In this document: positions 1 through 39,215 of the stretch, one piece after another | How the letters are laid out: every line of letters begins with the position of its first letter | Position numbering within the stretch: position 1 is the first letter of the stretch | Source of the DNA: Patescibacteria group bacterium | GTDB taxonomy: Bacteria; Patescibacteriota; Patescibacteriia; UBA9570 | Length of the DNA: 64,000 bases | Assembly (NCBI GenBank): GCA_041665365.1 | Contig: JBAYIY010000004.1 | Location: forward strand, 8,610 to 72,609 | Reading direction: 5' to 3' | Notes under the pieces: generated by a model | What the model was told of the DNA's origin: nothing | The model's input: only the letters and a program-made list of their open reading frames with translations | Database searches by the model: none | Program-made: the position numbers and the translations under genes

Positions 1-3000
1 AAAGTAACTGTACCGAGTGATGGTAGCGTGGTAGATGGTTCATATGCCTTTTCTGAAGATAAAACTGCAGCGGTGTTTTATCCAGCCAGTGATTATCAGG
101 CTGATACTACTTATAAGGTAGAATTAACCAGTGCCATCGAAGGGATTAACCCAGATACCGGCGCGGTCTATAATTTATCCTCCAGTGATTCAAAACGGAT
201 TTTTACTTTCAGCACCGGTACCACCACCGATGATATTCCACCAACTGTTAATGTGGCCGAACTGGCACCATTTCCAGCTGACGGTGATGTGGATATTTGT
301 TTGAACCCAACACTGCAGGTATCATTTTCGGAAAGCCTTGATCCGGCATCGCCATCTGATAATAATTTTTGGTTATTCAAAGCCGCTGACGTTGTAGCCG
401 ATACATTAGATATTGGTAACATTCGGTTAACCAGTATTGGTGGGGAATCGGATGATACTATTGTTACCTCTCCGCAAGACCAATTAGATAGTAACACTGA
501 GTATGGCATTAGTTTGTATAGTGGTGACCCAGCGACCGATCAGTTTACTGGCGCCATTTATGATACATGCGGCAACCCGTTGAGTGGTAATTTTGATGTT
601 CTGATGACAGGTAGCCCAACGGATGATTATATCGATTCGGCTGCCACCACCTATCCCTGGACATTTACGACCGGCGATCAACCATATTGTGTACCGAATA
701 TTGATAGTGTCAGCCAAGAAGATTCTTACTACAGTGAAGATCAAGCACCAATCGGTACCAGTGGAGATGAAGATACTGGTGTTACCACTTTAACCGGTGA
801 TTATCTTTATCCATTTTATGATGTTAATTTTAACGATAATATCTCGGCAGCTGGAATAAATTGTTTTGATACTGGGCACGATACTACATTAGGTTGTTTT
901 GTTAGCCATACTGGTAGTTCCAGTATTTCTTTGCGCTTACCGGTGGCCAGTCAAACCGGGGTAGTGAGTGTGGAAAATAATAATGGTGCCGATGATTCAC
1001 CGCAAGTGGCGGTAGTAGCTTCACCTTATCTGCGTAGTACTTCACCAGCCACTGGGCCAGTTGGACAGTATATTACCATTCGCGGAAAGCATTTCGGTGA
1101 TTATGATCCAGCTGTATCTGGCAGTGAGCGTGGTCAAGTGTGGTTTGGTGATGTGGCCGGTGAATTCGTTTGTGCGGATGGTTGGGACGATACCAGTATT
1201 ATTGTGCGTGTACCAGTGGGGTTAAATGTTGATGATACACCAACCATTCAAGTTATTACAGCCGCCGGTAAATATAGTAATCAATTAAGCTTTACCGTAA
1301 CCGACGGTACACCTGGCCCTGGTTTGTGTGAGTTAGTACCAAAGTGTAGTGATACTGGAGCCGATAGTGTCACGGCCTTAGGAGAAAATTTTGGAGATGA
1401 TGGTGCCGTTTATTTTCAATCATCTTCTGGTGAGGTTAATATTGGCACGGTGACTAGTTGGAATGTGTATAATGAAACCTATCTTAGTCAGACCGTTGTC
1501 ACGGATGGCACGCCGGTAACTGCTCTAGATACGTATAGTTTTTCAGTTGGGTCTACTGGTATTAGTAATAGTTTAGATTTTAAAATTTCCTGTGCCGAAC
1601 CGCCTAGTTTATTTGAGTCTTATAGTTGTGATCTCAGTGCCGGCACCTATTATCTACCAAATCCAACCAGTTCGAGTGATAATGCCTGTGTTAATAGTGT
1701 GATTGATTTTGCTTTCACCACGACTATGGATGATACTGCGGTTGAATCTGGCGTGGCGATTTATAAGTGTAATAATACAGAACCATTCGATGATACAACT
1801 TGTACGCCAATTACTGGTGAGTATATTAGCGGTTTTCTCGATTCAGCTTATGGTGCCGGCAGTACGGCTAGTGAATATTCCTTCACTCCGAGCGGTGGTT
1901 TTTCGGCTGGTTACTACTATAAAGTAACTATACCATCAAGTGTGACTGACAGCACTGGTGTGGGCTTAGATAGTGATTACGCCTGGAATTTTAAAGTGCG
2001 AGATGATACTAGTGCCTGTAAAGTAGATTCTTTATCAGTTTCACCAGCCACGGAACGTGTCACGGGTTATGACGCGGTGGATGCGTGTCTGGATAATCAT
2101 AATTATAAAGACACAAGCTATTCATTGCGCGCTCGTCCGGCCACGGCTGATTGTTTGATGCTTGATGCGGTGGGGGATTACACTTGGGATATAAGTGAAC
2201 CTGCTATATTAACTTTTGGTAGCAATAGCACCACCGGTAGCGATGTCGTTGGTAGTAGTCTGACTCATACTACAACTAATGGTTATGATACTGTTTGTTT
2301 ACAGGGAGCCGGCGAAACCAATGATGGTTTATCTACTGTCTCTGCCTCCATCGAAGGTGTGTCAGATTCAGCTGATATTGAGGTTGATTTTGGTTATTGT
2401 ACGCAAGATAGTGATTGCTATACGGCCGATTGTCGTGATACCTATTGTGATGCCACCACGTCACATTGTGCTCCAGATGTAATTGGATTTACCCCAGCTA
2501 CGGTTGGAGCCGGTGGTTGTTTAACTTTAAATGGTTGCTATTTTGGTAGTGATCAAACTCAATCGGGTTATTGTACGTGTACCAGTTTAAAAGCAGACGG
2601 TGAAACCTGCACGATTGATGAAGGTGATGTGGCCTGTTTGTTATCTGGTGGTATTTCCAGTTGTACTTTAAATGAGGAATATTGTGAGTTAGGTAGCACT
2701 TGTACCACTGAATCAGCCGAGGCTAATTATGATTTAGGTTATTTTAGGGGTTGTGACTGTATCATGACTGATGGTACTAGCCGCACTTGTCGTGTGGAAG
2801 ATGGTGCTACCCAATGTGTGGTAGCTGGTTCTGAAACTTGTTCAGCTACTTCAAGTACATTTACCGCCGGTGGTGCTGGCAGTATCAGTTTTGGTAGTAC
2901 TACCGCCTCAACTCCAGCTTCAACCTACTGTGGTGACGTTTGGAATACCGATCAAGTAGTGGTACAAGTTCCAGAAGATGGTTCAGTTACCCCGGGCACC

Positions 3001-6000
3001 TACGATGTAACATTACAGAGTTACTACGGATTGTCTGACACCATTGAGGGTTGTGCGGTGGGTAGTGACCCAACAGCTTGTTTATGTAGAATAGAGCCAG
3101 CTCGTGGCCAAGAAGGTACCATCGCCGATTTATTTGGTGACCACTTTGATCTTTTCACCACCAATCGGCGAGTCACTTTTGCTGGTTCAATCAGTCGTGT
3201 TCAGACTGATGGCACTGAAACTTGGACTAGTGCCAATGAAATTAACAACTCTATCGTACCAGAAGGGGCTGTTAGTAGTTCTGAAGGTGTGCAATTGGAG
3301 GACGATACTTCTACCAGTAACGCTTTGAATTTTAATGTGAGTTGTAGTTCCGATTTTGATTGTGCCACCGGTTGTTGTAACGCCGGGCAGTGTGCAGCGG
3401 CCGAGCAGTGCAATATTTGTACCACTGACAGTGATTGTTCTTCCAGTGCTTGTACTTCCACTTGTGTGGCCAGTACTTGTGCGCCGGTTATTACTAAGCT
3501 TAGTCCAGATCATGGTGCCGTCGGGCAACCGGTAACTATTCAGGGTTGTCATTTTGGGTCTTATTATGATCCCGCCAGTTCCACTCCGGGAAGTACCGTT
3601 ACCATGGATGGTATTCAAGCCGAGTTAGCCTGTTCAGAAACGCAAGAGTGGAGTAACCGCCAGATTATTGTCACAGCACCAGATGGTATATTTACTGATG
3701 CCACCACTGATTTAGCTAGTGTGCAAGTGCAACAGGTTAGTACAGTGAATGCGGAGTTGATCGCTCAAACCAGCAATGCCGTTGATTTTACTATGGATAA
3801 TAGCTGCTCTGAAGTTGATTTGCCAGTGTTGTGTAATGCTAATCCCGTCTACAGCCCAGTGGCTAATGATGTTACTTTAACCGGTGAGAATTTCCGCGCT
3901 GAAGCTGATGGTTATTGCGCTTGTACTACTAGTTTAGGTGACTGCAAAATCACGGCGGGTGATACCTCTTGTACTCTCACAGAAAGTAACACGTATTATG
4001 TCAATCCGACTGATACCAGTGAAGTTTGTGCTAATGGCAGTTCCGGTCCGGCCACCTCCAATGCCAATACTTTTTACGATGCCACCGTTGGTGCTTGTGT
4101 GTATACCGATACCACTGATACAACTATTACTTGTCAGATTACAACTGGGTCGGCCAGTTGTGTAGTAACAAATTCAGACACGTGTTATGCCGATCGGATT
4201 GATACCAGTTTGAAATGTTCAAAAGATGTTACCGGTTTTGTATCATTAGATGGTTCTGCTCAATACTATTCAGATCAAGCAGCAATCATAGATTGGACGA
4301 CATATTCCAGTACAAAATACGATACAACTGTGCCGAGTGATAGTGAAACTGGAGATGTCAACGTAATTTCTACCACTCAAAATAATACTCAGTGCGTCAG
4401 TAATGGTCTTGAATTTCCAATTTCTTGTGCCTCGTGTGGGGAATGTAACAGTACCGCCGATCATGCATTGAATTGTGATCTCACCTATGATGCCGCCTTT
4501 GGTAGTTGTACCACCTCAAGTACTGGGTTTTGCCGCGCTCAACCGGATTCATGCTGTAATGTCTCCAGTTGTATCTACGATGATACTGCCACTACTGCCG
4601 TCGATGGTGGTACTTGTGTTGGTCAGCCAGTAGTAGCCTTTACTGATCCGGTTATGGCTGTTCAACCAGGTGATACAAATATTTGCGCCAATGTGCAGCT
4701 ACATGTGAAATTTAGTGAAGGCATGACTACCAGTGCCGCCACTGATACGAGCGATAACTTTGATAAATATATTTTCTTACGCCCATCTTCAGCTGATGAC
4801 ACAGCTAGTGATGAAACAGTGTTGAGCACAATTACTCCAACCAAAACCGGCAGTGAGTTAACTTTAGATCTGACAAAATTATTGGATTATGACACTGACT
4901 ATGAATTGATCATTCGTAGTCAGGATACAATTGTGTCAGGCACAAAGCATCAATCGGGTGTAATTTCAGCCACGACCGGTGCCGCTATTGGCTGTGATGC
5001 GACCATGAGTGCACTCGGTGTGTGTCATGATGGTTATATCAAATACACTTTTACCACTGCATCAGCGGCTGATTATTCGACCCAGTGTGGTCCGGCCAGC
5101 GTAGTATTAGAGGCGGATAGTAGTGACTTTATTGACCATGATTATACCTTTAATGAATCAGGGCAAACGGAAGATATCACCGCTACCACCTATTCCGGTG
5201 ATAGTCAGGCGATTAGTAGAATTGATGATGGTACAGAACCTGGTTTTTCTTGGAGTTATGACTGGACACCAACCTATACCACCTTAGCCGATTTAGAAGC
5301 CGATATCTGTCCGATTGCTGGCATTATTGGTGCCAGTACGGATGTGCCTAATCAAACTCTCACCGCTGATACACCAGATGCTGAAGGTGAACATACTGAT
5401 ACAGTAAAAGTTTCCATCACTGGAGATGGTTCCGTTGAACAAGGTTGGAATAATTCTTTTACCGATAGTTTATTATACGATTTTCAATACTGTGATCCAG
5501 ATAAATTAGTCACTTATAGTAACAGTGATTACAACTTATATTGGTCATACTGTCAGGGTGATATGGCTGAGTTTGATGAGGTGTTTAGTAGAGATAGCGC
5601 TAAAATTACTGAAGAATATGGTCACACGGAAGATTTTATTTATGAAATCGGTTTTAAAGATACTGCTGCGACTACCAATGATGCCACTACTAATAATAAC
5701 TTGATTGTGTTACGGGTTTATCCAAACGATATTGACGGTTCACCAGCTTCACCTTGGGATAGTATCAATCCAGATTTATGGTATATGCTAAATACCAATA
5801 ACCCTTCGGCTACCGCTACTCCAACCACAGTGAATGGTTATGATGCTGTCACAGTCGGTAATACTGTTTATGTGGCGGCCAATAATTTGGATGATCACGA
5901 TGATTCTATAGAGGTTGAGGGGGAGGAAGAAGAAGATCTTAATTATGGTACTTTATCATCTTACATGTTTGTAGTGGCTTACAGTGCCGATGCCTCCAGT

Positions 6001-6672
6001 GCCACGACTGATGTAGTCACGGCTATTTTAGATGGTTTCAAATTTAATCGTAATGAGACATTATCAACCGATTGTGCCTTAGAAAAAGCTAAATTAGTCA
6101 TCGATACCAACCGGGTGACCGACTTAGGTACGATCGCTTATTTATTAAGTAGTTATTATTATCATGATAGTGACGGTAATGGTGTAAATGATTTTCCAGA
6201 TTTAACCAGTGGTTCATATATTACCGGTTTAACCACGTCAGTTTGGCCATCTTGGGATGCAGTGTTAGGCGATGCGCTGGGGCAGACGTTGTTTACGGAT
6301 CCGGTTAATACTTTTGCCGATGCAACCACACAGTGCCCATACGCGCCGGACGATAATAAATACTATGATGCCTCTGGCTCATGTTGGGATCCGGTAAACA
6401 AAAAATTCTTCGGGCCAACTGATTCTCATGTTTATCTTTATGAATATCAATCGGCTGATCAATTTGCTTTATATTCCAAGCTAGATTATACCGGTTTAGG
6501 TAGTTGGGGACAGAGTTACTCGTATGATCCATGCACGACATATTCTGATGGTACCACAGCTGTGTCTACTAAAATCAGTGGTTTTTCCGGAGGGTGTTCG
6601 ACCTTTAACTACCTGGTCAATAATACATTGACGACAGATAATACCCTGTATGCCAAACTCTTTGCCGATTGA
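1..6672 (+). CDS. Giant secreted/cell-surface protein (over 2214 aa). The reading frame is open from base 1, so the gene is probably 5'-truncated by the window edge. It is Thr/Ser/Asp/Gly/Cys-rich with repeated IPT/TIG-like modules and many CxxxC pairs.
   Basis: The track ORF 28..6672 is in frame with bases 1-27 with no stop. Repeated '...GQ(Y/P)(I/V)TI(R/Q)G.HFG...' segments resemble IPT/TIG domains. The composition is extreme in Cys and Thr. No TM segment is seen in the part covered. Confidence 0.6.
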   Translation, partial: KVTVPSDGSVVDGSYAFSEDKTAAVFYPASDYQADTTYKVELTSAIEGINPDTGAVYNLSSSDSKRIFTFSTGTTTDDIPPTVNVAELAPFPADGDVDICLNPTLQVSFSESLDPASPSDNNFWLFKAADVVADTLDIGNIRLTSIGGESDDTIVTSPQDQLDSNTEYGISLYSGDPATDQFTGAIYDTCGNPLSGNFDVLMTGSPTDDYIDSAATTYPWTFTTGDQPYCVPNIDSVSQEDSYYSEDQAPIGTSGDEDTGVTTLTGDYLYPFYDVNFNDNISAAGINCFDTGHDTTLGCFVSHTGSSSISLRLPVASQTGVVSVENNNGADDSPQVAVVASPYLRSTSPATGPVGQYITIRGKHFGDYDPAVSGSERGQVWFGDVAGEFVCADGWDDTSIIVRVPVGLNVDDTPTIQVITAAGKYSNQLSFTVTDGTPGPGLCELVPKCSDTGADSVTALGENFGDDGAVYFQSSSGEVNIGTVTSWNVYNETYLSQTVVTDGTPVTALDTYSFSVGSTGISNSLDFKISCAEPPSLFESYSCDLSAGTYYLPNPTSSSDNACVNSVIDFAFTTTMDDTAVESGVAIYKCNNTEPFDDTTCTPITGEYISGFLDSAYGAGSTASEYSFTPSGGFSAGYYYKVTIPSSVTDSTGVGLDSDYAWNFKVRDDTSACKVDSLSVSPATERVTGYDAVDACLDNHNYKDTSYSLRARPATADCLMLDAVGDYTWDISEPAILTFGSNSTTGSDVVGSSLTHTTTNGYDTVCLQGAGETNDGLSTVSASIEGVSDSADIEVDFGYCTQDSDCYTADCRDTYCDATTSHCAPDVIGFTPATVGAGGCLTLNGCYFGSDQTQSGYCTCTSLKADGETCTIDEGDVACLLSGGISSCTLNEEYCELGSTCTTESAEANYDLGYFRGCDCIMTDGTSRTCRVEDGATQCVVAGSETCSATSSTFTAGGAGSISFGSTTASTPASTYCGDVWNTDQVVVQVPEDGSVTPGTYDVTLQSYYGLSDTIEGCAVGSDPTACLCRIEPARGQEGTIADLFGDHFDLFTTNRRVTFAGSISRVQTDGTETWTSANEINNSIVPEGAVSSSEGVQLEDDTSTSNALNFNVSCSSDFDCATGCCNAGQCAAAEQCNICTTDSDCSSSACTSTCVASTCAPVITKLSPDHGAVGQPVTIQGCHFGSYYDPASSTPGSTVTMDGIQAELACSETQEWSNRQIIVTAPDGIFTDATTDLASVQVQQVSTVNAELIAQTSNAVDFTMDNSCSEVDLPVLCNANPVYSPVANDVTLTGENFRAEADGYCACTTSLGDCKITAGDTSCTLTESNTYYVNPTDTSEVCANGSSGPATSNANTFYDATVGACVYTDTTDTTITCQITTGSASCVVTNSDTCYADRIDTSLKCSKDVTGFVSLDGSAQYYSDQAAIIDWTTYSSTKYDTTVPSDSETGDVNVISTTQNNTQCVSNGLEFPISCASCGECNSTADHALNCDLTYDAAFGSCTTSSTGFCRAQPDSCCNVSSCIYDDTATTAVDGGTCVGQPVVAFTDPVMAVQPGDTNICANVQLHVKFSEGMTTSAATDTSDNFDKYIFLRPSSADDTASDETVLSTITPTKTGSELTLDLTKLLDYDTDYELIIRSQDTIVSGTKHQSGVISATTGAAIGCDATMSALGVCHDGYIKYTFTTASAADYSTQCGPASVVLEADSSDFIDHDYTFNESGQTEDITATTYSGDSQAISRIDDGTEPGFSWSYDWTPTYTTLADLEADICPIAGIIGASTDVPNQTLTADTPDAEGEHTDTVKVSITGDGSVEQGWNNSFTDSLLYDFQYCDPDKLVTYSNSDYNLYWSYCQGDMAEFDEVFSRDSAKITEEYGHTEDFIYEIGFKDTAATTNDATTNNNLIVLRVYPNDIDGSPASPWDSINPDLWYMLNTNNPSATATPTTVNGYDAVTVGNTVYVAANNLDDHDDSIEVEGEEEEDLNYGTLSSYMFVVAYSADASSATTDVVTAILDGFKFNRNETLSTDCALEKAKLVIDTNRVTDLGTIAYLLSSYYYHDSDGNGVNDFPDLTSGSYITGLTTSVWPSWDAVLGDALGQTLFTDPVNTFADATTQCPYAPDDNKYYDASGSCWDPVNKKFFGPTDSHVYLYEYQSADQFALYSKLDYTGLGSWGQSYSYDPCTTYSDGTTAVSTKISGFSGGCSTFNYLVNNTLTTDNTLYAKLFAD

Positions 6673-10580: not shown

Positions 10581-11735
10581 ATGGCTAATGGTAAATATGT
10601 AGAAGTTAAACCTGATGTAGAAACATTCGCAAAGATTCTTGTGGTGGGCGTTGGTGGCTCCGGTGGCTCTGCCGTTTCCCGCATGATTGACAGTGGTTTA
10701 AAAGGGGTTGAATTTGTCGCTATTAACACCGATGCCCAGGCTTTACACCATAATCCAGCTAAGAACAAAATCCATATTGGTAAGAGTACAACTCGCGGTT
10801 TAGGTGCCGGTATGGATCCTGCCATTGGAGCGAAAGCCGCTGAAGAAACTAATGAAGAATTAACCGCCATGCTCAAGGGAGCGGATATGGTGTTTGTGAC
10901 CTGTGGTTTAGGTGGTGGTACTGGGTCTGGGGCTGGTCCTATTATTGCTCGTTTAGCGCGTGATGCCGGTGCGTTAACAGTAGCCGTTGTAACCAAACCA
11001 TTTCAATTTGAAGGAGCGCAACGTAACCAAATTGCCGATGCCGCTTATAATGAAATGGCCGATGCGGTGGATACAATTATCACCATTCCAAATGATCGCT
11101 TGTTACAAATTATTGATAAGAAAACATCTTTACTTGATGCCTTTAAAACTGTCGACAATGTTTTATTTCAAGGTGTGCAAGGAATCTCTGATTTGATTAC
11201 TGTACCAGGTTTAATTAACGTTGACTTTGCTGATGTAAAATCGGTTATGGCCAACGCCGGTTCGGCCTTGATGGGGATCGGTAAAGCCACGGGTGAGAAT
11301 CGAGCTGTAGAGGCAGCTAAATCAGCCGTTGATAGTCCATTATTAGAATTGAGTATTGATGGAGCTAAGGGTATCTTGTTTACCATCACTGGTGGACCAA
11401 ATTTGAGTATGTACGAAGTCAATGAAGCCGCTCGGGTGATTACTGAATCGGCTGATCCATCCGCCAAGATTATTTTTGGATCCAATGTTGATGAATCTTT
11501 AGGTGATGAAGTTAAAGTAACGGTCGTAGCGACTGGTTTTGGTCAACCAGCCAAAGCCGCCAAAAAAATTCAAGCTGTGCGCCAAACGCCATTTAGCAAA
11601 CGCGAAGATAAAGATATGCCCGTTGCAACCAGTAATACTTTCCGCAACAAAAATATCATGGACGAAGCTCCCGTAGATAATTCCTCCGATGAAGATTTAG
11701 AGGTACCGGCCTTCATTCGGAAGAAGATGATGTAA
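10581..11735 (+). CDS. ftsZ: Cell division GTPase FtsZ
   Basis: Tubulin signature 'GGGTGSGAGPIIA'. 'VVGVGGSGGSAVSRM'. Confidence 0.95.
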   Translation: MANGKYVEVKPDVETFAKILVVGVGGSGGSAVSRMIDSGLKGVEFVAINTDAQALHHNPAKNKIHIGKSTTRGLGAGMDPAIGAKAAEETNEELTAMLKGADMVFVTCGLGGGTGSGAGPIIARLARDAGALTVAVVTKPFQFEGAQRNQIADAAYNEMADAVDTIITIPNDRLLQIIDKKTSLLDAFKTVDNVLFQGVQGISDLITVPGLINVDFADVKSVMANAGSALMGIGKATGENRAVEAAKSAVDSPLLELSIDGAKGILFTITGGPNLSMYEVNEAARVITESADPSAKIIFGSNVDESLGDEVKVTVVATGFGQPAKAAKKIQAVRQTPFSKREDKDMPVATSNTFRNKNIMDEAPVDNSSDEDLEVPAFIRKKMM

Positions 11736-11752
11736 GGAACAACAATTAACAT

Positions 11753-11794
11753 AAAACTGGTAGAGACATGCCATGGCATGTCTCTACCAGTTTT
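11753..11794 (+). terminator. 42-nt perfect palindrome (aaaactggtagagacatgcc|atgg|catgtctctaccagtttt) after ftsZ. It is flanked by an A-tract and a T-tract, so it can act as a bidirectional intrinsic terminator. It belongs to the GTAGAGAC palindrome family.
   Basis: Reverse-complement identity checked base by base. T4 follows on the + strand and A4 precedes. Confidence 0.7.
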
Positions 11795-11860
11795 ATGTGT
11801 GTCAATATGTTTTTTATTATGGTTTATTTATGGCAGATGATCTATACTAACTGACGAACT

Positions 11861-12334
11861 ATGATCTGCCCAGCCTGTTTATTTACGGATACAAAAGTGG
11901 TCGATTCGCGTGACATGGATGATGGCATGGCGATTCGACGGCGACGGGAGTGTCCGAAATGTGAGTTTCGTTTTTCCACCAAAGAACAAGTCGAAATTCT
12001 TAACTTGACGGTAAAAAAGCGGGCTGGTCGAATGGAACCGTATTCTACAGAAAAAATTACCCGTGGTTTACACATTGCCTTAGAAAAACGTCTTAAAGAT
12101 GACGAACGGTTTAAGAAACTTGTAGCGGGGATTGAGCGGGATATTCAAATTGCCGCCACTAGCGAAGATGTGATTGAATCAAAGGCGATTGGGGATATCG
12201 TGATGCGTCATTTGAAAAAAATTGATAAAATAGCCTATATCCGATTTGCTTCAGTGTATCAAGATTTTGAAGATTTATTATCCTTTCAGGAAGAAGTTGA
12301 GCGCCTAATGAACAAACATAAGAAAAAAACTTAA
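11861..12334 (+). CDS. nrdR: Transcriptional repressor NrdR
   Basis: N-terminal Zn-ribbon 'CPACLFTDTKVVDSRDMDDGMAIRRRRECPKCEFRFST' followed by an ATP-cone. About 157 aa. Confidence 0.9.
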   Translation: MICPACLFTDTKVVDSRDMDDGMAIRRRRECPKCEFRFSTKEQVEILNLTVKKRAGRMEPYSTEKITRGLHIALEKRLKDDERFKKLVAGIERDIQIAATSEDVIESKAIGDIVMRHLKKIDKIAYIRFASVYQDFEDLLSFQEEVERLMNKHKKKT

Positions 12335-12342
12335 AAACCACT

Positions 12343-12915
12343 ATGCATATTCATCCTAAGCCAACCAAGTCACATCAGCCAAAGAAAAAATTAGGTTATC
12401 TTCATCTCTATACCGGCGCGGGTAAAGGTAAAACCTCAGCGGCTTTGGGTGTTTTGTTACGCGCGGCTGGGCAAGGCCATCGTGTCTTGATGATTCAATT
12501 TTTAAAGGGGCACAAAGATGCCGGTGAGTTTCTAGCCTTTCAGAAATTAGGGTCTAATATCGAAATTGTTCAATTTGGTCGAGCTGATTTATTGTCACTC
12601 GATGCACTTCAAGCCGCTGATGCTTATTTTACGAAACAAGGTTTAGATTATGCTCGCCAGGCGATGCGCAGTAAACAACGCCCGGATGTTCTAATCTTAG
12701 ATGAAATTACCTCAGCGGTGCACTATGGTCTATTGCCAATTGAAGAACTGGTTGATTTTCTTGATAATCGTCACCGTGAAACTGAAGTAGTTCTAACCGG
12801 CGCTGAAGCGCACCCGGCGCTCTTTAATCTGGCCGATTTAGTGACCGTGATGCAACCGGCTAAGCATTATTTCAATTACGTCAACTTTGCCCCTAGGCTT
12901 GGTATTGAACATTAG
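12343..12915 (+). CDS. cobA: Cob(I)yrinic acid a,c-diamide / cob(I)alamin adenosyltransferase (CobA/CobO/BtuR family)
   Basis: P-loop 'LYTGAGKGKTSAALG' and 'MIQFLKG', typical of the BtuR/CobA family. Lies directly upstream of the B12-dependent RNR. Confidence 0.75.
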   Translation: MHIHPKPTKSHQPKKKLGYLHLYTGAGKGKTSAALGVLLRAAGQGHRVLMIQFLKGHKDAGEFLAFQKLGSNIEIVQFGRADLLSLDALQAADAYFTKQGLDYARQAMRSKQRPDVLILDEITSAVHYGLLPIEELVDFLDNRHRETEVVLTGAEAHPALFNLADLVTVMQPAKHYFNYVNFAPRLGIEH

Positions 12916-12943
12916 AGCGCTACTAGGTTATCCACAGTGACAA

Positions 12944-12990
12944 CACAATATATTGTGGTATACTTTGTTTCTAACCACTATATATAGATA
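12944..12990 (+). promoter_or_regulatory. Tandem NrdR boxes upstream of nrdJ
   Basis: Box 1 'acacaatatattgtgg' at 12944-12959 contains the perfect palindrome CACAATATATTGTG. Box 2 'ccactatatatagata' at 12975-12990 contains the palindrome CTATATATAG. Centre-to-centre distance is 31 bp, matching the published NrdR-box arrangement (consensus acaCwAtATaTwGtgt, two boxes about 31-32 bp apart). Confidence 0.7.
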
Positions 12991-13005
12991 AATCAACATA
13001 ATCTT

Positions 13006-15300
13006 ATGTACAATCTGCAGGGCTTAGCCAAAGACGTCTTTTTCGATCGCTATACTTTAAAGGACGACCAAGGCAAGCGCATCGAAGACACTCCCGAACA
13101 AATGTGGCAGCGGGTAGCTAAAGCCATTGCGACTGTTGAAAAAACTGATAGCAAAAAACAAGAGTGGGAAGAAAAATTCTATAGTATATTAAATGGTTTC
13201 GATTTTGTTCCAGGTGGCCGAATATTATCCGGCGCGGGCTCTGGCGTACCTTTAACGTTATATAACTGCTTTGTTATCCCATCACCCGATGATAGTCGAG
13301 GTGGCATTTTGGATAGTGTTAAACTGATGGTGGAAATTATGAGCCGAGGCGGTGGTGTGGGAGTGAATCTTTCCAGTGTGCGTCCGCGCGGGGCTTATGT
13401 GAAAGGGGTCAATGGCACCGCTTCCGGGGCGGTCTCGTTTGGGGCATTGTATTCCTTTGCCACCGGCTTGATTATTCAAGGTGGGTCAAGACGAGGCGCA
13501 TTAATGCTCATGTTGGATATTGATCATCCTGATGTAATGGAATTCATCACGGTTAAACGTACCATGGGTCAAATTACTAACGCCAATTTGTCGGTGTGTG
13601 TGTCGGATAGTTTCATGCAAGCAGTCAAAGCCAATGCCGATTGGAATCTACAATGGCGCGGTAAAGTTTACAAAACAGTCAAAGCTAGAGATTTATGGAA
13701 TCTTGTCTGTGAATCCGCTTGGGCATCTGGTGAGCCAGGTTTAATGTTCAAAGAACGTTACAATAAAGAATCCAATGCTTGGTACTTTGAAGAAATTATC
13801 GCCACTAATCCATGTGGTGAGCAAGGTTTACCGGCTTGGGGTGTATGTAATTTAGGATCAATCAACGTAGCTAACTGTGTGCGCGCCGATAATACTTTTG
13901 ATTATGATCGTTTGGGAAAGGTAGCCCGGATTGCTATTCGGTTCTTAGATAATGTAGTCGATACCACTGAGTATTTCTTCCCAGAAAATGAAGCGGCCCA
14001 ACGGCGCATTAGACGCACTGGTTTAGGCACTATGGGGTTAGCCGATGCTTTGATAAAAATGAACGTGCGTTATGGTAGCCCAGAATCACTAGAGATTGTT
14101 GAAAAGATGCATCAGACCATTCGCGATGAAGCCTATGCCGCTAGCAGTGAATTAGCGGTAGAAAAAGGTCCGTTTCCGGCTTTTGACAAGGATAAATTCA
14201 TGCAAGGAGTTTTCATTAAACGTTTACCTCAGGCTTTGCAAGATACCATCGCGCGGCAAGGTTTACGCAATGGTGTGTTATTAACTCAAGCTCCCACTGG
14301 CACCACCAGTATTCTGGCTGGCGTTAGTTCTGGTATTGAACCAGTCTATGATTTTGCTTTCCAACGCAAAGATCGTTTAGGTGTACATACGGTGTATCAC
14401 CCCTTATATAAAGCCTGGAAGGATGCACACCCTGATGTTAATGACATGCCTGATTATTTTGTTAGTGCCAAAGTGTTAACACCAGAAGAACACGTGCGCA
14501 TGCAAGCTTCGATTCAGCGCTATGTTGATTCTAGTATCAGTAAAACGGTTAATGCTCCACATACACACACGCAAGAACAAGTACAAGAGCTTTATATCAA
14601 GGCGTATGATTTAGGTTGTAAAGGAGTAACATATTTCCGAGATGGTTCACGCAGTGAAGCCGTGTTGACCAGTTTAACCGACACTAAAAAAGACTCAGCC
14701 GCTAAACCTGACAAAACCGAGACCAAAGATGCGATTATTTCACCTCGTTTGCGTCCAGAAAAAGTGGCTGGCATCACGTATAAGATTAAAACTGGTTACG
14801 GTACCATGTTTGTAACAGTTAATCATGATGAAGACGGTAAACCATTTGAAGTGTTCGCCACGATTGGTAAAGCCGGTGGAGTGTTTGCGGAAGAATCTGA
14901 GGCGATCTGTCGGTTGGTGTCGCTCGCCTTACGCGCTCGTATCCCATTGCCAACTGTGGTTGAGCAAATTAAAGGGATTCGTGGACCAATGCCGATCTTT
15001 GGTAAGAACGGTATGATTTTATCTATTCCCGATGCTATCGCGCAGGTGCTCAGCCAACACATGCAAGACCTTGAATTAAAACCAGCCCCGGCGCAACAAC
15101 AAGCTGAAGTTGAACAAATGGTGGAAGACACTATGACAACCACGGTGAAAAAAGCCGAAGGCAAATATAAACTAATTTCCGCCAGTTCGTCGGTAGCCAA
15201 CACCGGTTTCTCCCCAGAGTGTCCGGAATGTAGTAGTATCATGGCCATGGCCGAAGGCTGCCTAACTTGCTTTAACTGTGGGTATTCTAAGTGTAGTTAA
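13006..15300 (+). CDS. nrdJ: Class II (adenosylcobalamin-dependent) ribonucleotide reductase
   Basis: 'NPCGEQGLPAWGVCNLGSIN' active-site block, 'TQAPTGTTSI', C-terminal CxxC..CxxC Zn-ribbon. 764 aa. Confidence 0.9.
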   Translation: MYNLQGLAKDVFFDRYTLKDDQGKRIEDTPEQMWQRVAKAIATVEKTDSKKQEWEEKFYSILNGFDFVPGGRILSGAGSGVPLTLYNCFVIPSPDDSRGGILDSVKLMVEIMSRGGGVGVNLSSVRPRGAYVKGVNGTASGAVSFGALYSFATGLIIQGGSRRGALMLMLDIDHPDVMEFITVKRTMGQITNANLSVCVSDSFMQAVKANADWNLQWRGKVYKTVKARDLWNLVCESAWASGEPGLMFKERYNKESNAWYFEEIIATNPCGEQGLPAWGVCNLGSINVANCVRADNTFDYDRLGKVARIAIRFLDNVVDTTEYFFPENEAAQRRIRRTGLGTMGLADALIKMNVRYGSPESLEIVEKMHQTIRDEAYAASSELAVEKGPFPAFDKDKFMQGVFIKRLPQALQDTIARQGLRNGVLLTQAPTGTTSILAGVSSGIEPVYDFAFQRKDRLGVHTVYHPLYKAWKDAHPDVNDMPDYFVSAKVLTPEEHVRMQASIQRYVDSSISKTVNAPHTHTQEQVQELYIKAYDLGCKGVTYFRDGSRSEAVLTSLTDTKKDSAAKPDKTETKDAIISPRLRPEKVAGITYKIKTGYGTMFVTVNHDEDGKPFEVFATIGKAGGVFAEESEAICRLVSLALRARIPLPTVVEQIKGIRGPMPIFGKNGMILSIPDAIAQVLSQHMQDLELKPAPAQQQAEVEQMVEDTMTTTVKKAEGKYKLISASSSVANTGFSPECPECSSIMAMAEGCLTCFNCGYSKCS

Positions 15301-15308
15301 CCAACAAC

Positions 15309-15394
15309 ACACCTCCCCAACCCTCCTATCGTAGGAGGGGGTAAGAAAAATTATCTTGCTCCCTTCCTAGAATAGGAAGGGCGGGGGGATGGTG
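15309..15394. repeat. GC-rich double-hairpin element (CCTCCCCAACCCTCCT + hairpin + GTAAGAAA + hairpin + GGGGGG). Second copy of the MITE-like element found at 22395-22516.
   Basis: Hairpin 1 is 15321-15339 (ccctccta/tcg/taggaggg). Hairpin 2 is 15361-15381 (cccttccta/gaa/taggaaggg). The shared block 'acctcccc(t)ccccaaccctcct' and the 'gtaagaaa' linker match the copy at 22402. Confidence 0.6.
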
Positions 15395-15408
15395 CAGTAC
15401 GATTCAAA

Positions 15409-15999
15409 ATGAAACATTTTACAAAAAAGAATTTAATAATCGCAATAAGTTTAATTGTCTTGGGTGGATTAGGTAGATTGTTATTACTTGAGTATCCAAA
15501 TGTTGAAACTTTAACTAGTGTATCGATTATAGCGGGGGCGTTACTGGGGCCGTATCTGGGATTACTAGTTAGTTTGTGTAGTGTCGTTGGTACGGATATG
15601 GTAATAGGTAATACCAATATTATGCTCTACACCTGGAGTGCCTGGGCGATAATTGGTTTAGCTAGTTCTTTGTTAAAAAGACGACAGCGTAAAACTATTC
15701 AAGTTTGGCAGGATAGTTTAAAGTTCACCGGGTTTGGTATGATAACAACACTATTCTTTTATTTGTGGACGAATTTTGGTGTCTGGCAGCTTAGTGGTAT
15801 GTACGCCCACACGTCGGCCGGTTTAATGCTATCATATATTAATGGGTTGCCGTTTTTACGCAATCAACTATTAGGGAATTTATTTCTAGTACCAGTGTTA
15901 TCGGTTATTTCCTTAACCGTCGTTAAATATCTAGTTTACTCTCATGCCTACAATCACCAAAGAATCTCTCATCGGCGAAGTATTGTTAGAGCATCCTGA
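15409..15999 (+). CDS. Small polytopic membrane protein, possibly an ECF-type S component-like substrate-capture subunit (inference).
   Basis: Five to six predicted TM helices in 196 aa. 'AGALLGPYLGLLVSLCSVVGTDMVIG' resembles ECF S-component helices. Lies in the RNR/B12 operon. Its 3' end overlaps the next gene by 56 nt. Confidence 0.35.
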   Translation: MKHFTKKNLIIAISLIVLGGLGRLLLLEYPNVETLTSVSIIAGALLGPYLGLLVSLCSVVGTDMVIGNTNIMLYTWSAWAIIGLASSLLKRRQRKTIQVWQDSLKFTGFGMITTLFFYLWTNFGVWQLSGMYAHTSAGLMLSYINGLPFLRNQLLGNLFLVPVLSVISLTVVKYLVYSHAYNHQRISHRRSIVRAS

Positions 16000-16162
16000 A
16001 GCCCAGGAGATTATGCTCAAGTATTTTGGCGAGCAGGTGGCCTGTGTGTTTTGTCCTGGGCAAGCTTTTGATACTTTTGCCATGATCGCTGAGCTGCATG
16101 GCGTGGAGGATAGTGTGGTTGAAGAAATGCTGGCGGAGATAAATCAAAGCATTGGCAAATAA
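15944..16162 (+). CDS. DUF1858-type small redox/disulfide domain protein
   Basis: 72 aa. 'ITKESLIGEVLLEHPEAQEIMLKYFG...CVFCPG' matches the DUF1858 architecture (about 70 aa, conserved Cys pair). Confidence 0.55.
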   Translation: MPTITKESLIGEVLLEHPEAQEIMLKYFGEQVACVFCPGQAFDTFAMIAELHGVEDSVVEEMLAEINQSIGK

Positions 16163-17460
16163 GTTTCGATTTCGTAGTGGTGCACTTGACGGCGGTAATT
16201 ATTCCATTCCATTTCTTTATTCATGATTAGTTTAGCGTGCACATCCTCACCTAAAGTGTCTTTCAGTAAAACACTGTTTTTGGCTAAATTAATCGCTTCT
16301 TTTAAGCTACCGGGCAGAGCGGTGATATTGGCTTTAGCCATCGCTTCATCAGACATTTCGAAAATATCATTTTCCGTGGCTGGGCTTAATTGATAATTTT
16401 CCATAATACCTTTTAGACCGGCGCGTAACATTACGGCAAAAGTTAAGTAAGGGTTAGCGGCTGGGTCTGGGCAACGTAATTCAATGCGGGTAGCATTAGC
16501 TTCACCACGGGTTAGAGGGATACGCACCAACGTAGAGCGGTTACGGCGACCCCAGGCTAGGTAAGCGGGTGCTTCGTAACCTGGCACGAGTCTTTTATAT
16601 GAGTTTACATACTGATTAGTTACTAAGACTATTTCCGGCATGTGTTTTAAAATTCCAGCCACATAGGATTTAGCTAAACTGGATAAACCATATTCATCGC
16701 GACTATCATGAAACATATTTTCCCCATTTTTCCATAAACTTTGGTGCACATGCATGCCGCTGCCATTTTGGCCAAAAATCGGTTTGGGCATGAATGTAGC
16801 ATAGGCGCCATGTTCACGAGCAATTTCTTTCACCACATATTTATATGTCATGACAATATCTCCCATCGATAGAGAATCACTGTATTTCATGTTGATCTCC
16901 TGTTGTGATGGAGCCACTTCATGATGGCCACGTTCAACGCTATAACCGAGTCGTTCTAGAGCCTCCACCGTGCGTTCACGCAAAATGGTACCTTGTTCCA
17001 GAGTAATCTGATCAAAATAACCGGCTTTGTCTAAACCAACTGTGGCGGTATTATCTTTAAAATAAAAGTATTCTAGTTCAGGTCCAACAAAATAATCATA
17101 ACCCTGTTGTTTAGCAAAAGCGACGTTGCGGGCTAAAACATTACGTGGGTCTGAGCCATACGGTAAACCATGAGCATCATATACCGAGCACATGAAGCGA
17201 GCGATTTTATGGACATCCGCCTCAATTGGTAAAATGGCGAACGAATCTAAAATTGGTTTGAGCACTAAATCGCTTTCTTCGATGCGGGAGAAACCATCAA
17301 TCGATGAACCATCAAAAAAGGTGCCCTCTTCTAAATAGCGCTCGAGTCTTTCTACCGGAAAAGTAATTCCCTTTAGTTGGCCGAGTACATCGGTAAACCA
17401 AAATCCTACCATGGTCACGTGTTCGGCTTTCACTTTGGCTAATATTTCCGCTGTCGTCAT
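16144..17460 (-). CDS. glnA: Glutamine synthetase
   Basis: 'FFDGSSIDGF' GS signature. 'GMHVHQSLW' and 'NRSTLVRIP' regions. 438 aa. Confidence 0.85.
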   Translation of the reverse strand: MTTAEILAKVKAEHVTMVGFWFTDVLGQLKGITFPVERLERYLEEGTFFDGSSIDGFSRIEESDLVLKPILDSFAILPIEADVHKIARFMCSVYDAHGLPYGSDPRNVLARNVAFAKQQGYDYFVGPELEYFYFKDNTATVGLDKAGYFDQITLEQGTILRERTVEALERLGYSVERGHHEVAPSQQEINMKYSDSLSMGDIVMTYKYVVKEIAREHGAYATFMPKPIFGQNGSGMHVHQSLWKNGENMFHDSRDEYGLSSLAKSYVAGILKHMPEIVLVTNQYVNSYKRLVPGYEAPAYLAWGRRNRSTLVRIPLTRGEANATRIELRCPDPAANPYLTFAVMLRAGLKGIMENYQLSPATENDIFEMSDEAMAKANITALPGSLKEAINLAKNSVLLKDTLGEDVHAKLIMNKEMEWNNYRRQVHHYEIETYLPML

Positions 17461-22232: not shown

Positions 22233-22380
22233 AAAATATGTTTATTAAAAATAAAATTCCCAATTTATAGGGAATACAGCCTGTATTCCCTACGCTGGCA
22301 TAACCCAGATCAGGTAATGTAAGGATACTTCTCAGTCCATAAGGACGCTCCTATACAGTGCTATCATATTACCAGTTGAG

Positions 22381-26557: not shown

Positions 26558-27010
26558 ATGAAAAAAATTACAAAAATGCTATTCGTTGTTAGTTCGTTGT
26601 TCGCTGTTACTAGTTGGTTTATGCCAATGTCAGCCTATGCTTTTGTACCGTCTAATTTGGAGGGTCGATACAATGGTGATTGGGAATTGCTTGATGGCGG
26701 GTTGTGCTATACAGCCGGTGCCACGGGCAATATTGTCATTAGAATTGTGGACATGGACGCTAATGGAACAATTAATGATGCGCGAGTAAAATTTTCCGAT
26801 GAAGCGCAAACTCCAGCGGAACTTGGTACGGGTCGTATTTTTATGCGTAACGGAGTACGGCGCATTCGTTTAAATTATGATATTGCCGGTTATGACCGAT
26901 ATATTAAAGGTAGATTAACCAGAACCAGAAAGATTAAAGGTAATTATTATCATGCCGCCTCAGATGATAGTTGCATTTGGTCAGGATCAGTTAGCGCCAG
27001 TCATATCTAA
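26558..27010 (+). CDS. Small secreted hypothetical protein (signal peptide)
   Basis: 'MKKITKMLFVVSSLFAVTSWFMPMSAYA' signal peptide. The rest is unassigned. Confidence 0.45.
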   Translation: MKKITKMLFVVSSLFAVTSWFMPMSAYAFVPSNLEGRYNGDWELLDGGLCYTAGATGNIVIRIVDMDANGTINDARVKFSDEAQTPAELGTGRIFMRNGVRRIRLNYDIAGYDRYIKGRLTRTRKIKGNYYHAASDDSCIWSGSVSASHI

Positions 27011-27778
27011 AAATTGTTTATGAGCAGCCACATCGTGCACCCGTAACCAGGCGGCACCATGTTGGACGGCTATAAAATGGGCTGCCAGCGTACCTGGTAG
27101 CCTGTTTTGTATATCAGCGCCGGTTAATTTACCGATAAATGATTTGCGTGATGCCCCCACCATGACGGGTTTTTTTCCGAACACAGCAATGTTTTTAATC
27201 AATGCCAAATTATGTGAGACAGTTTTTCCAAACCCAATGCCAGGGTCTAAAATAATCTTATCTGGTTTAATACCAGATGCAAGACACAGTTTGATTTGTT
27301 GTTTAAAAAAATTATTTACCTCAAAAACGACATTTTTATAACGTGGGTGTTTTTGCATGGTTTGTGGTTCACCTAGCATGTGCATTATTATCACGGTACA
27401 GTGGTGTTGAGCGGCTAACTGGCGCATGGCCGGATCACGCAGGCCGGTAATATCATTTATCCAGGTAGCACCAGCTTGAATGGCCTGTTTGGCTACCTCT
27501 ACTTTGTAAGTATCAATCGAAATGGGTGTGTTGGTTTTTTTATGTAAAGCCTTAATTGCTGGAATAACCCGGTGTAGTTCTTCTTGCAGTGAGACAGGTT
27601 TAGCACCCGGCCGGCTAGATTCACCGCCAATATCAATCACCGCAGCGCCTTCACGCACGAGTTGCAGAGCATGCTGGACAGCTGCGCGAGTGGTTTTTAA
27701 TTGACCACCATCCGAGAATGAATCCGGTGTGACGTTAACGATACCCATTAAATTAACTCTACTTTTTTTCATACTCAA
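26987..27778 (-). CDS. folP: Dihydropteroate synthase
   Basis: 'MGIVNVTPDSFSDGG' pterin-binding motif and a DHPS TIM-barrel-like sequence. Confidence 0.9.
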   Translation of the reverse strand: MSMKKSRVNLMGIVNVTPDSFSDGGQLKTTRAAVQHALQLVREGAAVIDIGGESSRPGAKPVSLQEELHRVIPAIKALHKKTNTPISIDTYKVEVAKQAIQAGATWINDITGLRDPAMRQLAAQHHCTVIIMHMLGEPQTMQKHPRYKNVVFEVNNFFKQQIKLCLASGIKPDKIILDPGIGFGKTVSHNLALIKNIAVFGKKPVMVGASRKSFIGKLTGADIQNRLPGTLAAHFIAVQHGAAWLRVHDVAAHKQFLDMTGAN

Positions 27779-39080: not shown

Positions 39081-39215
39081 CCCCCACAATAATATTATAT
39101 ATACTGTCTTGAAGTGCTTGTTAGTTTTTGAGATTAACGGTTATTATCCTGTTATATAAAGGATTACTATTAGCCTCAAAAACTAAGCACCAACTTAGTA
39201 ATTAATTACAAAAAT

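Follow-up and report, generated by a model that had tools for sequence, protein, structure and literature searches.

The systems closest to the locus reported here serve the uptake of vitamin B12, for which the proteins are still unidentified in a large share of B12-dependent prokaryotes (PMC6072759). ECF-CbrT is an experimentally proven importer of B12 and cobinamide (Santos et al. 2018, PMC5997447; PDB 6FNP), and an nrdJ-cbrS-cbrT-pduO cluster has been described in Lactobacillales (Rodionov et al. 2009, as cited in PMC5997447). The gene order that we found in Lactobacillus helveticus is nrdJ-DUF4430-CbrT-PduO, in which DUF4430 corresponds to the beta-domain of transcobalamin (PMC4350170, PMC1796856). 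The BtuM-BtuR system occurs in Thiobacillus denitrificans and other proteobacteria (Rempel et al. 2018, PMC6072759), and Burroughs et al. (2007, PMC1796856) described bacterial operons for B12 scavenging that contain transcobalamin-like SLBB/DUF4430 proteins.

We analysed a stretch of 64,000 nucleotides of patescibacterial DNA (the window) and propose, with a probability of about 80%, that the locus listed below amounts to a self-contained gene module with which a B12-auxotrophic, Kerfeldbacteria-like patescibacterium makes deoxyribonucleotides in a B12-dependent way, by the mechanism set out further on. Like the Lactobacillales cbrT cluster, it combines a class II ribonucleotide reductase (RNR), a corrinoid adenosyltransferase and a six-helix S-component. 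Its membrane protein, however, belongs to PF20221 (DUF6580; 92 bits) and not to PF12822, the family matched by CbrT itself, and the two are about 20% identical. The adenosyltransferase is of the CobA type rather than the PduO type, and nrdJ encodes a reductase like NrdJ_Z and that of T. maritima rather than one of the monomeric Lactobacillus RTPR type. The patescibacterial locus also has nrdR in cis together with NrdR and DnaA boxes, and carries an extra DUF1858 CxxC gene but no cbrS/DUF4430, whereas most other DUF6580 loci have a cbrS-type DUF4430 gene directly upstream, as in L. helveticus. With BtuM-BtuR it shares an S-component-like membrane protein co-localised with a CobA/BtuR adenosyltransferase, a likeness that suggests, by analogy, that uptake precedes metabolic trapping and may do without an ECF module. 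The operons of Burroughs et al. are alike in occurring in B12 auxotrophs, and in relatives of the window locus the membrane component is accompanied by a DUF4430 protein, either secreted or lipid-anchored, and in some cases also by an alpha/alpha-toroid protein; the 2007 operons had CbiO/CbiQ-like (ECF A/T) genes, whereas the DUF6580 loci have none and the window lacks DUF4430. The features of the locus are as follows.

11752-11795, unstranded: hairpin with a perfect 20-bp stem after ftsZ, from a terminator-like scan; upstream boundary of the nrdR unit
11861-12334, + strand: nrdR, Zn-ribbon plus ATP-cone, repressor of ribonucleotide reductase genes
12343-12915, + strand: cobA/btuR-type ATP:cob(I)alamin adenosyltransferase gene (PF02572), starting 8 bp past nrdR
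12928-12936, + strand: DnaA box TTATCCACA, perfect consensus, abutting the -35 of the nrdJ promoter
12937-12964, + strand: predicted nrdJ promoter, -35 GTGACA, 16-nt spacer, TG-extended -10 TATACT
12943-12958, unstranded: NrdR box 1 ACACAATATATTGTGG, within the promoter spacer, 15/16 to consensus
12975-12990, unstranded: NrdR box 2 CCACTATATATAGATA, downstream of the -10, 12/16 to consensus
13006-15300, + strand: nrdJ, class II adenosylcobalamin-dependent ribonucleotide reductase (TIGR02504) with a Cys-rich C-terminal tail
15310-15394, + strand: very stable imperfect hairpin without a T-run, between nrdJ and the DUF6580 gene
15409-15999, + strand: DUF6580 membrane protein (PF20221), six-helix ECF S-component fold, predicted corrinoid importer subunit
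15944-16162, + strand: DUF1858-like small cytoplasmic protein with CxxCPG, last gene of the unit

All five open reading frames of the initial annotation (nrdR, cobA/btuR, nrdJ and the DUF6580 and DUF1858 genes) were present at the positions given there, with families in agreement, and profile matches bore out its view that the repressor, the adenosyltransferase and the AdoCbl-dependent reductase are co-linear. NrdR matched TIGR00244 with 155.3 bits (cutoff 124.65) as well as PF22811 (63 bits) and PF03477 (59 bits), and a zinc ribbon (C3xxC6...C31xxC34) could be read in its N-terminus, followed by the ATP-cone. NrdJ matched TIGR02504 with 591 bits (cutoff 399.95) along with PF02867, PF00317 and TSCPD, and its closest solved relative is the B12-dependent RNR of T. 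maritima (1xjk; E 1e-85). For the adenosyltransferase, which has the P-loop GAGKGKTS, the PF02572 score was 170.3 bits (cutoff 25.7) and the closest solved relative was S. enterica CobA (1g5r/4hut; E 2e-21 over residues 12-188). It remained below the NCBIfam equivalog cutoffs (TIGR00708, 135.5 versus 167.75; NF004637, 152.5 versus 185). The Phe91/Trp93 pair, which has a role in S. enterica CobA, is absent from the window protein, where GRADL aligns with GFTWE. Judged by its sequence, the window CobA is a divergent member of the PF02572 family, and its adenosyltransferase function is supported indirectly by a comparison of 80 DUF6580 loci from Patescibacteria, DPANN archaea and Actinobacteria. 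Of these, 42 link an adenosyltransferase gene to nrdJ, in varied gene orders (CobA type in 31, PduO type in 11), and the swap of CobA for the unrelated PduO type, a non-orthologous replacement, points to function and not to inheritance. The earlier suggestion of an adenosylation step dedicated to NrdJ is likewise supported by this pattern.

With a gap of only 8 bp, nrdR and cobA form one predicted unit. Because cobA is paired with nrdR upstream of the boxed promoter, it would lie outside the NrdR-controlled transcript; co-localisation of the adenosyltransferase gene with nrdJ thus stands, but not the single operon that had been assumed for them. The DUF6580 gene lies 108 bp from nrdJ. The initial annotation was right about a small membrane protein downstream, although the overlap it described is one of 56 nt with the DUF1858 gene and not with nrdJ. 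The hairpin in the spacer that follows nrdJ (-53.1 kcal/mol, z = -6.5) has GC-rich counterparts at the corresponding spot in L003, L004 and L007. It is likely an mRNA-stabilising or attenuating element, and it could limit co-transcription of the two genes. When this spacer was searched for a riboswitch at E values up to 10, only spurious matches to miRNA models were obtained, caused by the hairpin, and the candidate was rejected.

The six-helix fold of ECF S-components, for which DUF6580 was tested, is present. A single-sequence search of the PDB with the window membrane protein returned neither BtuM nor CbrT and profiles were needed. In the profile search the sole PDB match was CbrT (6fnp_A; E 1.6e-4), near full length, and hhalign of DUF6580 alignment A2 against the CbrT family alignment A4 gave 97.8% (E 1.1e-12). 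At the sequence level, DUF6580 is distantly homologous to CbrT, the S-component for vitamin B12. Residues N31, E33, D63, N68, W76 and N122 of DUF6580 are invariant. Together, the fold, this homology and the DUF4430 and riboswitch context elsewhere support DUF6580 as a predicted corrinoid uptake component. The initial annotation had proposed a corrinoid-capture component, of which the corrinoid part is upheld by CbrT homology and context; extracellular capture would in most lineages belong to the DUF4430 partner, which is absent from the window. In the literature searched, no paper mentioned DUF6580/PF20221, and nothing relevant appeared on CPR with B12 and NrdJ or on Patescibacteria with ECF.

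The source of one of the 80 loci, L051, is the 1.19-Mb Saccharibacteria chromosome OZ246402.1, and DUF6580 is also carried by the 365-kb contig k141_1447249. Among the 80 loci, NrdJ is encoded in 45, and the secreted, transcobalamin-like DUF4430 protein is encoded directly upstream of DUF6580 in 40-48. A cobalamin riboswitch precedes the DUF4430-DUF6580 unit in 13-14 loci, either directly (L025, L028, L037, L039, L040, L081, L061, L044 and L052; up to 88.5 bits) or one gene farther upstream (L046, L048, L055 and L059). Neither a riboswitch nor a nearby nrdJ was found in the 11 actinobacterial-type loci; the DUF4430-DUF6580 pair is retained at least in L072, which is of this type. The type-D loci continue after DUF4430-DUF6580 with genes for dCTP deaminase, a ThyA-like protein and thymidylate kinase, and also hold an MtrA-like protein. 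The CbrT-like context of nrdJ, adenosyltransferase and DUF4430 is therefore present for the DUF6580 family, and the window has the first two only. No cobalamin riboswitch was detected in the window at the gathering threshold, nor in 12 type-A loci, and DUF4430 was absent from the window and from its clade. As a result, the strongest context evidence comes from relatives that are 36-50% identical. In gene content the window clade is a variant without DUF4430 and riboswitch, with an added CxxC DUF1858 gene and with the putative transporter behind a predicted NrdR-controlled promoter. Other cobalamin genes, which the initial annotation had proposed to look for in the genome, were sought in the 64-kb window and none were found.

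The DUF1858 protein scored just below the cutoff for PF08984 (31.0 versus 32.2 bits) and below that for TIGR03980 (36.9 versus 44.95), and in the PDB it reached 2k5e only at E 1.3. Its CxxCPG motif is invariant among orthologues, and the gene is kept after DUF6580 in 13-18 type-A loci, never together with DUF4430. Its role may be redox. In L011 and L003 the proteins encoded between DUF6580 and DUF1858 had no Pfam match.

Tandem NrdR boxes are reportedly a feature of the NrdR regulon described by Rodionov and Gelfand in 2005, and the ribonucleotide reductase genes nrdAB of E. coli are under DnaA-box control. We scored NrdR boxes against the 16-nt consensus ACACWATATATWGTGT. The window shows no essential difference from the NrdR regulon: its boxes are 16-bp palindromes matching acaCwAtATaTwGtgt, form a tandem with a spacing of some three turns of the helix, overlap an nrd promoter and have nrdR nearby. 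Particular to the window are a regulated transcript that probably includes the B12 transporter gene, and an nrdR gene that would be co-transcribed with cobA. Tandem boxes upstream of nrdJ had been recognised in the initial annotation with the correct position for box 2; box 1 lies one base to the left of the 12944-12959 given there, and the centres are 32 bp apart in consensus register instead of 31 bp. The best promoter-like site within 11600-16400 is that of nrdJ (10/12 plus TG), which overlaps box 1 and includes a GGTATACT block conserved in related spacers. From these sequence features nrdJ is predicted to have its own sigma-70-like promoter, with box 1 in the spacer and box 2 just past the -10. 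A conserved predicted DnaA box abuts its -35. The TTATCCACA sequence keeps this position in 11 type-A loci, and in L023, L040 and L081 it lies upstream of nrdR; 15 of its 25 exact occurrences in about 926 kb fall in nrd upstream regions. As in E. coli nrdAB, a perfect TTATCCACA closely precedes the -35 of an RNR promoter, whereas the target here is a class II nrdJ of Patescibacteria and a single box is predicted.

Could the two palindromes be chance products of AT-rich promoter sequence, leaving nrdJ without NrdR regulation? Box 2 carries four mismatches, and single boxes with at most three mismatches are not significant alone in the window (two found versus 1.7 expected). The core of box 2 is nevertheless intact, and as ACTATATATAG it is nearly invariant across 10 genomes. 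When pairs were required to have at least 12/16 in each box and a spacing of 31-33 bp, 12 were found in 926 kb comprising the window and related loci (11 distinct sources, namely the window plus 10 loci), all of them upstream of nrdJ or nrdR, compared with none in 30 block shuffles of the same 926 kb. In the cobA-nrdJ spacers of ten related genomes, conserved blocks are limited to the two NrdR boxes, the DnaA box and the -10; both box cores are kept while the flanks diverge, and the likeness to NrdR regulons, as first annotated, held up. The repressor gene itself adjoins, and in L022 and L030, where the order is nrdR-nrdJ, the pair has shifted to the front of nrdR. Chance is thus a very unlikely explanation. 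A non-corrinoid substrate for DUF6580 (heme or another tetrapyrrole, cobalt, or a (deoxy)nucleoside or base), with the adjacency to nrdJ reflecting general nucleotide metabolism, would fit the nucleotide genes of the type-D loci, the window copy without a riboswitch, and the proposal that an ECF system of Lactobacillus sakei, whose subunits include transcobalamin-like ones, takes up heme (bioRxiv 10.1101/864751). We consider it improbable, because 13-14 cobalamin riboswitches stand upstream of DUF4430-DUF6580, the linkage of two unrelated adenosyltransferase families is sensible only for corrinoids, CbrT as a homologue has nM affinity for Cbl and Cbi (PMC5997447), and MtrA, whose relative is encoded in those same type-D loci, is a corrinoid-binding family. 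Cobalt would be useless without a corrin pathway, none of which was found in the window. The initial annotation had proposed a comparison with CbrT/BtuM-type transporters. As a member of the BtuM family, DUF6580 would be a solitary transporter with a cysteine ligand for base-off B12, which it would also decyanate. Neither alignment A1 nor A2 has an invariant or near-invariant Cys or His (the best Cys column reaches 41%), leaving the invariant cobalt-ligating Cys of BtuM (Cys80 in T. denitrificans) unmatched, and BtuM membership is rejected for lack of a conserved Cys.

A corrinoid importer related to CbrT remains the preferred reading, and its energisation is uncertain, since no EcfT/EcfA genes were found in the window and the TM1 motif is A-x6-[G/A], not the AxxxA that acts as EcfT-docking signature in S-components. 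No EcfT/CbiQ or ECF-type ATPase gene was present within 6 kb of DUF6580 in the 80 loci either, and a scan for ECF ATPases near DUF6580 (Walker A plus signature motif) retrieved only an unrelated ABC importer downstream of glnA. These observations would fit import of B12 without an ECF ATPase module, by facilitated diffusion through toppling that is pulled by CobA trapping; the substrate would be identical and energisation alone would differ. The tight linkage of cobA, like that of btuR with btuM, and the precedents of solitary BioY and BtuM (PMC6072759) also speak for such a route. On the other hand, CbrT, the closest characterised homologue, is inactive without an ECF module (PMC5997447), and the absence of ECF genes nearby is uninformative because group II S-components are usually encoded apart from their module, Lactobacillus cbrT likewise having none adjacent. 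We regard import without a module as a real possibility, though on balance not the probable one.

In the mechanism that we propose for the module, NrdR loaded through its ATP-cone would occupy both boxes and repress nrdJ and, by way of read-through past the T-less hairpin, the DUF6580 and DUF1858 genes too. With the DUF6580 gene behind the NrdR-controlled nrdJ promoter, transporter supply would follow dNTP demand and not B12 level. DUF6580 would bind external corrinoid and move it across the membrane by S-component toppling, driven, as for CbrT and as our default assumption, by a common ECF ATPase/T module whose genes lie elsewhere. CobA would convert the imported corrinoid into AdoCbl, which would be trapped in the cell and supplied to NrdJ, and the DUF1858 CxxC protein would serve a step, possibly a thiol-redox one. 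More speculative, and to us rather doubtful, is an extension in which a motor-independent DUF6580 and a trapping adenosyltransferase make up the smallest known B12 acquisition system, in Patescibacteria and DPANN and perhaps without ECF, in which Kerfeldbacteria rewired B12-sensing (riboswitch plus capture protein) into demand-sensing (NrdR/DnaA), and in which DUF1858 is a new cytoplasmic partner for B12 processing or reduction.

Altogether, DUF6580, an uncharacterised Pfam family that is widespread in Patescibacteria, DPANN archaea and some Actinobacteria, gains a concrete predicted function linked to the proven CbrT system. The replacement of a riboswitch by NrdR and DnaA-box control of a vitamin transporter would be an example of regulatory rewiring. 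For ultra-small, host-dependent bacteria, our data are consistent with the view that DNA precursors are made with a scavenged cofactor whose import, activation and regulation are encoded side by side, and such use would make their metabolism depend directly on the B12 producers of the community.

The gene string in the window was read with an ORF listing and HMM scans, and both agreed with the order of nrdR, a corrinoid adenosyltransferase gene, nrdJ (the class II, B12-dependent RNR), a small membrane protein gene and a DUF1858 gene that the initial annotation had given. The genes and the predicted sites between them are as follows:

11861-12334 (+), nrdR; TIGR00244, 155 bits, above cutoff; Zn ribbon and ATP-cone
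12343-12915 (+), CobA/BtuR/CobO-type ATP:corrinoid adenosyltransferase; PF02572, 170 bits; S. enterica CobA, E 2e-21
12928-12936 (+), predicted DnaA box TTATCCACA; perfect consensus, adjoining the -35 of the nrdJ promoter
12937 to 12964, predicted nrdJ promoter; -35 GTGACA at 12937, 16-nt spacer, TG-extended -10 TATACT ending at 12964
12943-12958, NrdR box 1 ACACAATATATTGTGG; 15/16 to consensus
12975-12990, NrdR box 2 CCACTATATATAGATA; 12/16 to consensus, core intact
13006-15300 (+), nrdJ; TIGR02504, 591 bits; T. maritima B12-dependent RNR, E 1e-85
15409-15999 (+), DUF6580 membrane protein, 196 aa; Pfam DUF6580, 92 bits
15944-16162 (+), DUF1858-like protein, 72 aa; HMM score slightly below cutoff

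In the ORF listing, nrdR and cobA are separated by 8 bp, cobA and nrdJ by 90 bp, and nrdJ and the DUF6580 gene by 108 bp, while the DUF6580 and DUF1858-like genes overlap by 56 nt. The string is bounded upstream by a 20-bp-stem hairpin behind ftsZ, and its DUF1858-like end is convergent with glnA on the opposite strand. The CobA homologue is divergent, scoring below NCBIfam cutoffs and lacking the F91/W93 pair of SeCobA. The nearest relatives of the window protein belong to Candidatus Kerfeldbacteria. The nrdR, NrdR-box and nrdJ part of the locus is ordinary.

The membrane protein had been proposed as a possible corrinoid-capture component, to be compared with CbrT/BtuM-type transporters. A single-sequence search of PDB chains returned nothing relevant. 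With a 40-sequence profile the sole match was CbrT, a known B12 S-component (6fnp_A, E 0.052), and a 66-sequence profile again matched only CbrT, nearly over its full length (E 1.6e-4); the 6FNP entry is the ECF-CbrT vitamin-B12 transporter of L. delbrueckii (PMC5997447). A profile-profile comparison of the CbrT family alignment with DUF6580 (PF20221) gave 97.8% probability and an E of 1.1e-12 over 164 columns. TM1 ends in an Arg in both families, which also share a PNV(E/Q) motif in loop 1 and a GNL motif in TM6; CbrT is assigned to PF12822, and some members of each family weakly match the model of the other. An invariant cysteine that ligates cobalt defines the BtuM family (PMC6072759). Since the DUF6580 family alignments contain no conserved Cys or His, membership of the BtuM family was ruled out. 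No mention of DUF6580 was found in the literature searched. DUF6580 is a well-supported candidate for a CbrT-like corrinoid importer subunit.

Scanning species-representative genomes with the DUF6580 profile yielded 80 loci (designated by L numbers) in many classes of Patescibacteria, two DPANN archaea and Promicromonospora/Luteimicrobium-type Actinobacteria. Neighbours were counted from tblastn, a DUF4430 HMM and ORF maps. NrdJ lay within 6 kb of DUF6580 at 45 of the 80 loci, CobA was nearby at 31, a PduO-type adenosyltransferase (PF01923; verified in L041) at 11 and NrdR at 25, and DUF4430 was encoded directly upstream at 40 (strict criterion) or 48 (HMM). At least one of these links was present at 64/80 loci; most of the others are truncated contigs or come from Actinobacteria whose DUF4430 is divergent (L072). 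Four architectures recurred:

A: nrdR-cobA-[boxes]-nrdJ-DUF6580-DUF1858; the window and close Kerfeldbacteria
B: [boxes]-nrdR-nrdJ-cobA-DUF4430-DUF6580; includes archaeon L078
C: nrdR-nrdJ-pduO-(700-880-aa protein)-DUF4430-DUF6580; Gottesmanbacteria and others
D: DUF4430-DUF6580-dcd-(MtrA-like corrinoid protein)-(ThyA-like)-tmk

The shuffled gene order, the exchange of two unrelated adenosyltransferases and the occurrence in two domains of life argue for functional coupling of these genes rather than mere co-inheritance. A signal anchor or lipobox is present on the DUF4430 proteins (140-170 aa). In transcobalamin-type proteins, DUF4430 forms the C-terminal beta-domain, which binds B12 (PMC4350170), and its secreted bacterial versions were predicted by Burroughs et al. 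to be B12 scavengers in auxotrophs (PMC1796856). DUF6580 is predicted usually to work with a transcobalamin-like DUF4430 partner.

A known counterpart is found in Lactobacillus helveticus, where the CbrT gene cluster reads nrdJ, DUF4430 (136 aa), cbrT, pduO, the arrangement cited as nrdJ-cbrS-cbrT-pduO for L. delbrueckii (PMC5997447). ECF-CbrT was shown to import cobalamin and cobinamide (PMC5997447). The functional set of the Patescibacteria module is therefore the same, with a distant CbrT homologue as its membrane component. ECF genes were found near DUF6580 genes at none of the loci, and DUF6580 TM1 carries A-x6-[G/A], not AxxxA. Shared ECF modules are normally encoded away from the S-component gene. 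CbrT requires the ECF module (PMC5997447); BtuM and some BioY proteins function alone (PMC6072759).

Several loci showed further gene associations. In L024 (5537-10062), and also in L026, L042, L045 and L060, the genes behind DUF4430-DUF6580 encode dCTP deaminase, an MtrA-like/PterinBD-DUF4346 fusion, a weakly thymidylate-synthase-like protein, thymidylate kinase and DeoC. Members of the MtrA family bind corrinoids, and this cluster may reflect a corrinoid-dependent step in thymidylate metabolism. L041 (6528-9345) and 12 further type C loci share a conserved pair downstream of DUF6580, comprising a ~150-aa protein without Pfam match and a ~782-aa VirD4/TraG-type coupling-ATPase-like protein. 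The Gottesmanbacteria locus L059 has a group I intron match (10970-11173, +, 72.6 bits) near tRNA genes.

Rfam scans at gathering threshold over 70 loci placed a cobalamin riboswitch directly upstream of DUF4430-DUF6580 in L025, L028, L037, L039, L040, L081, L061, L044 and L052 (top score 88.5 bits), and an AdoCbl-II or cobalamin riboswitch one gene further upstream in L046, L048, L055 and L059; L019 may have another of the latter class. Finding a B12 riboswitch ahead of both a membrane protein and a domain that binds B12 is classically taken as the mark of a B12 uptake system. Together with the CbrT homology and the linkage to DUF4430, nrdJ and adenosyltransferases, these riboswitches support the proposed role of the membrane protein in corrinoid uptake. 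The riboswitch-controlled operons of L044 and L052 also encode alpha/alpha-toroid proteins, whose fold is of the class seen in the transcobalamin alpha-domain (PMC1796856). Upstream of this operon in L052 (39-2938), nrdD, nrdG and cobA are co-linear, an odd position for an adenosyltransferase beside a B12-independent class III RNR. Cobalamin riboswitches also lie immediately downstream of DUF6580 in L057 (6555-6680), L058 (6490-6609) and L066 (6524-6682), leading into 340-660-aa proteins without Pfam match that are followed in L058 by nrdD and nrdG; these could mediate B12 repression of a B12-independent RNR route or of B12-related genes.

The type A loci, including the window, contained neither a cobalamin riboswitch nor a DUF4430 gene near DUF6580; what they conserve instead is a DUF1858-like gene, whose CxxCPG motif is invariant and which never occurs together with DUF4430. 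Here the DUF6580 gene stands directly behind nrdJ, and it abuts or overlaps nrdJ in several relatives. A very stable imperfect hairpin separates the two in the window (15310-15394, +, -53 kcal/mol, z -6.5, no T-run), with GC-rich hairpins at the matching position in L003, L004 and L007 and none where the genes abut. The predicted nrdJ promoter is the top promoter-like site of the whole region, and with box 1 inside its spacer and box 2 immediately downstream of the -10, the boxes have a repressor-operator geometry. The tandem boxes of the initial annotation proved real, with box 1 shifted by one position (12943-12958 instead of 12944-12959) and a spacing of 32 rather than 31 bp. Counted singly in the window alone, box-like sites were not significant. 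Tandem pairs (each box at least 12/16, 31-33 bp apart) occurred 12 times in the 926 kb of the window and related loci (window and 10 loci), and never in 30 block shuffles used as background. Every pair in cobA-before-nrdJ loci was upstream of nrdJ, and in the nrdR-nrdJ-cobA order (L022, L030) the pair was upstream of nrdR instead. The conserved blocks in ten aligned cobA-nrdJ spacers were both box cores and GGTATACT, plus a further motif TTATCCACAG, so that conservation of the boxes in relatives was borne out. A lone weak box-like site at 39092-39107 (+; ATATTATATATACTGT, 3 mismatches), ~110 bp upstream of metK, is probably due to chance.

The DnaA box recurred at the equivalent position in 11 type A loci; in three type B loci (L023, L040, L081) it stood upstream of nrdR, and 15 of the 25 perfect DnaA-box matches in the 926 kb fell within nrd upstream regions. 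RNR genes are known to be under DnaA control in E. coli (nrdAB), and we infer that the predicted box at the nrdJ promoter may be bound by DnaA. The type A transporter would be expressed from this NrdR- and DnaA-box-controlled promoter, and would thus be governed by dNTP demand, not by B12 level. The adenosyltransferase gene, previously placed in one operon with nrdJ, is indeed co-linear with it, but is paired with nrdR and would lie outside the NrdR-repressed transcript.

Elsewhere, the window holds a TPP riboswitch (22270-22362, -, 62 bits) upstream of a minus-strand ABC importer operon (SBP_bac_1, BPD_transp_1, ABC_tran), an arrangement also seen in L004 and probably serving thiamine uptake. 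A compact folate/pterin biosynthesis cluster (26987-30839, -; Pterin_bind, Aminotran_4, Chorismate_bind, GTP cyclohydrolase I, HPPK, PTPS) represents a biosynthetic capacity that is unusual among Patescibacteria genomes, and a giant surface-type protein (28-6672, +; 2372 aa in the full contig) combines T4SS_pilin and Big_5 domains.

A check for other cobalamin genes found no cob/cbi, btu, metH or ECF-module genes in the remainder of the 64-kb window, which fits a B12 auxotroph in which NrdJ is the visible user of B12. For the clade of the window we infer a variant form of regulation, with NrdR and a DnaA box in place of the riboswitch. What the analysis adds beyond an ordinary nrdR/nrdJ locus is the functional assignment of DUF6580, as a predicted corrinoid importer subunit.
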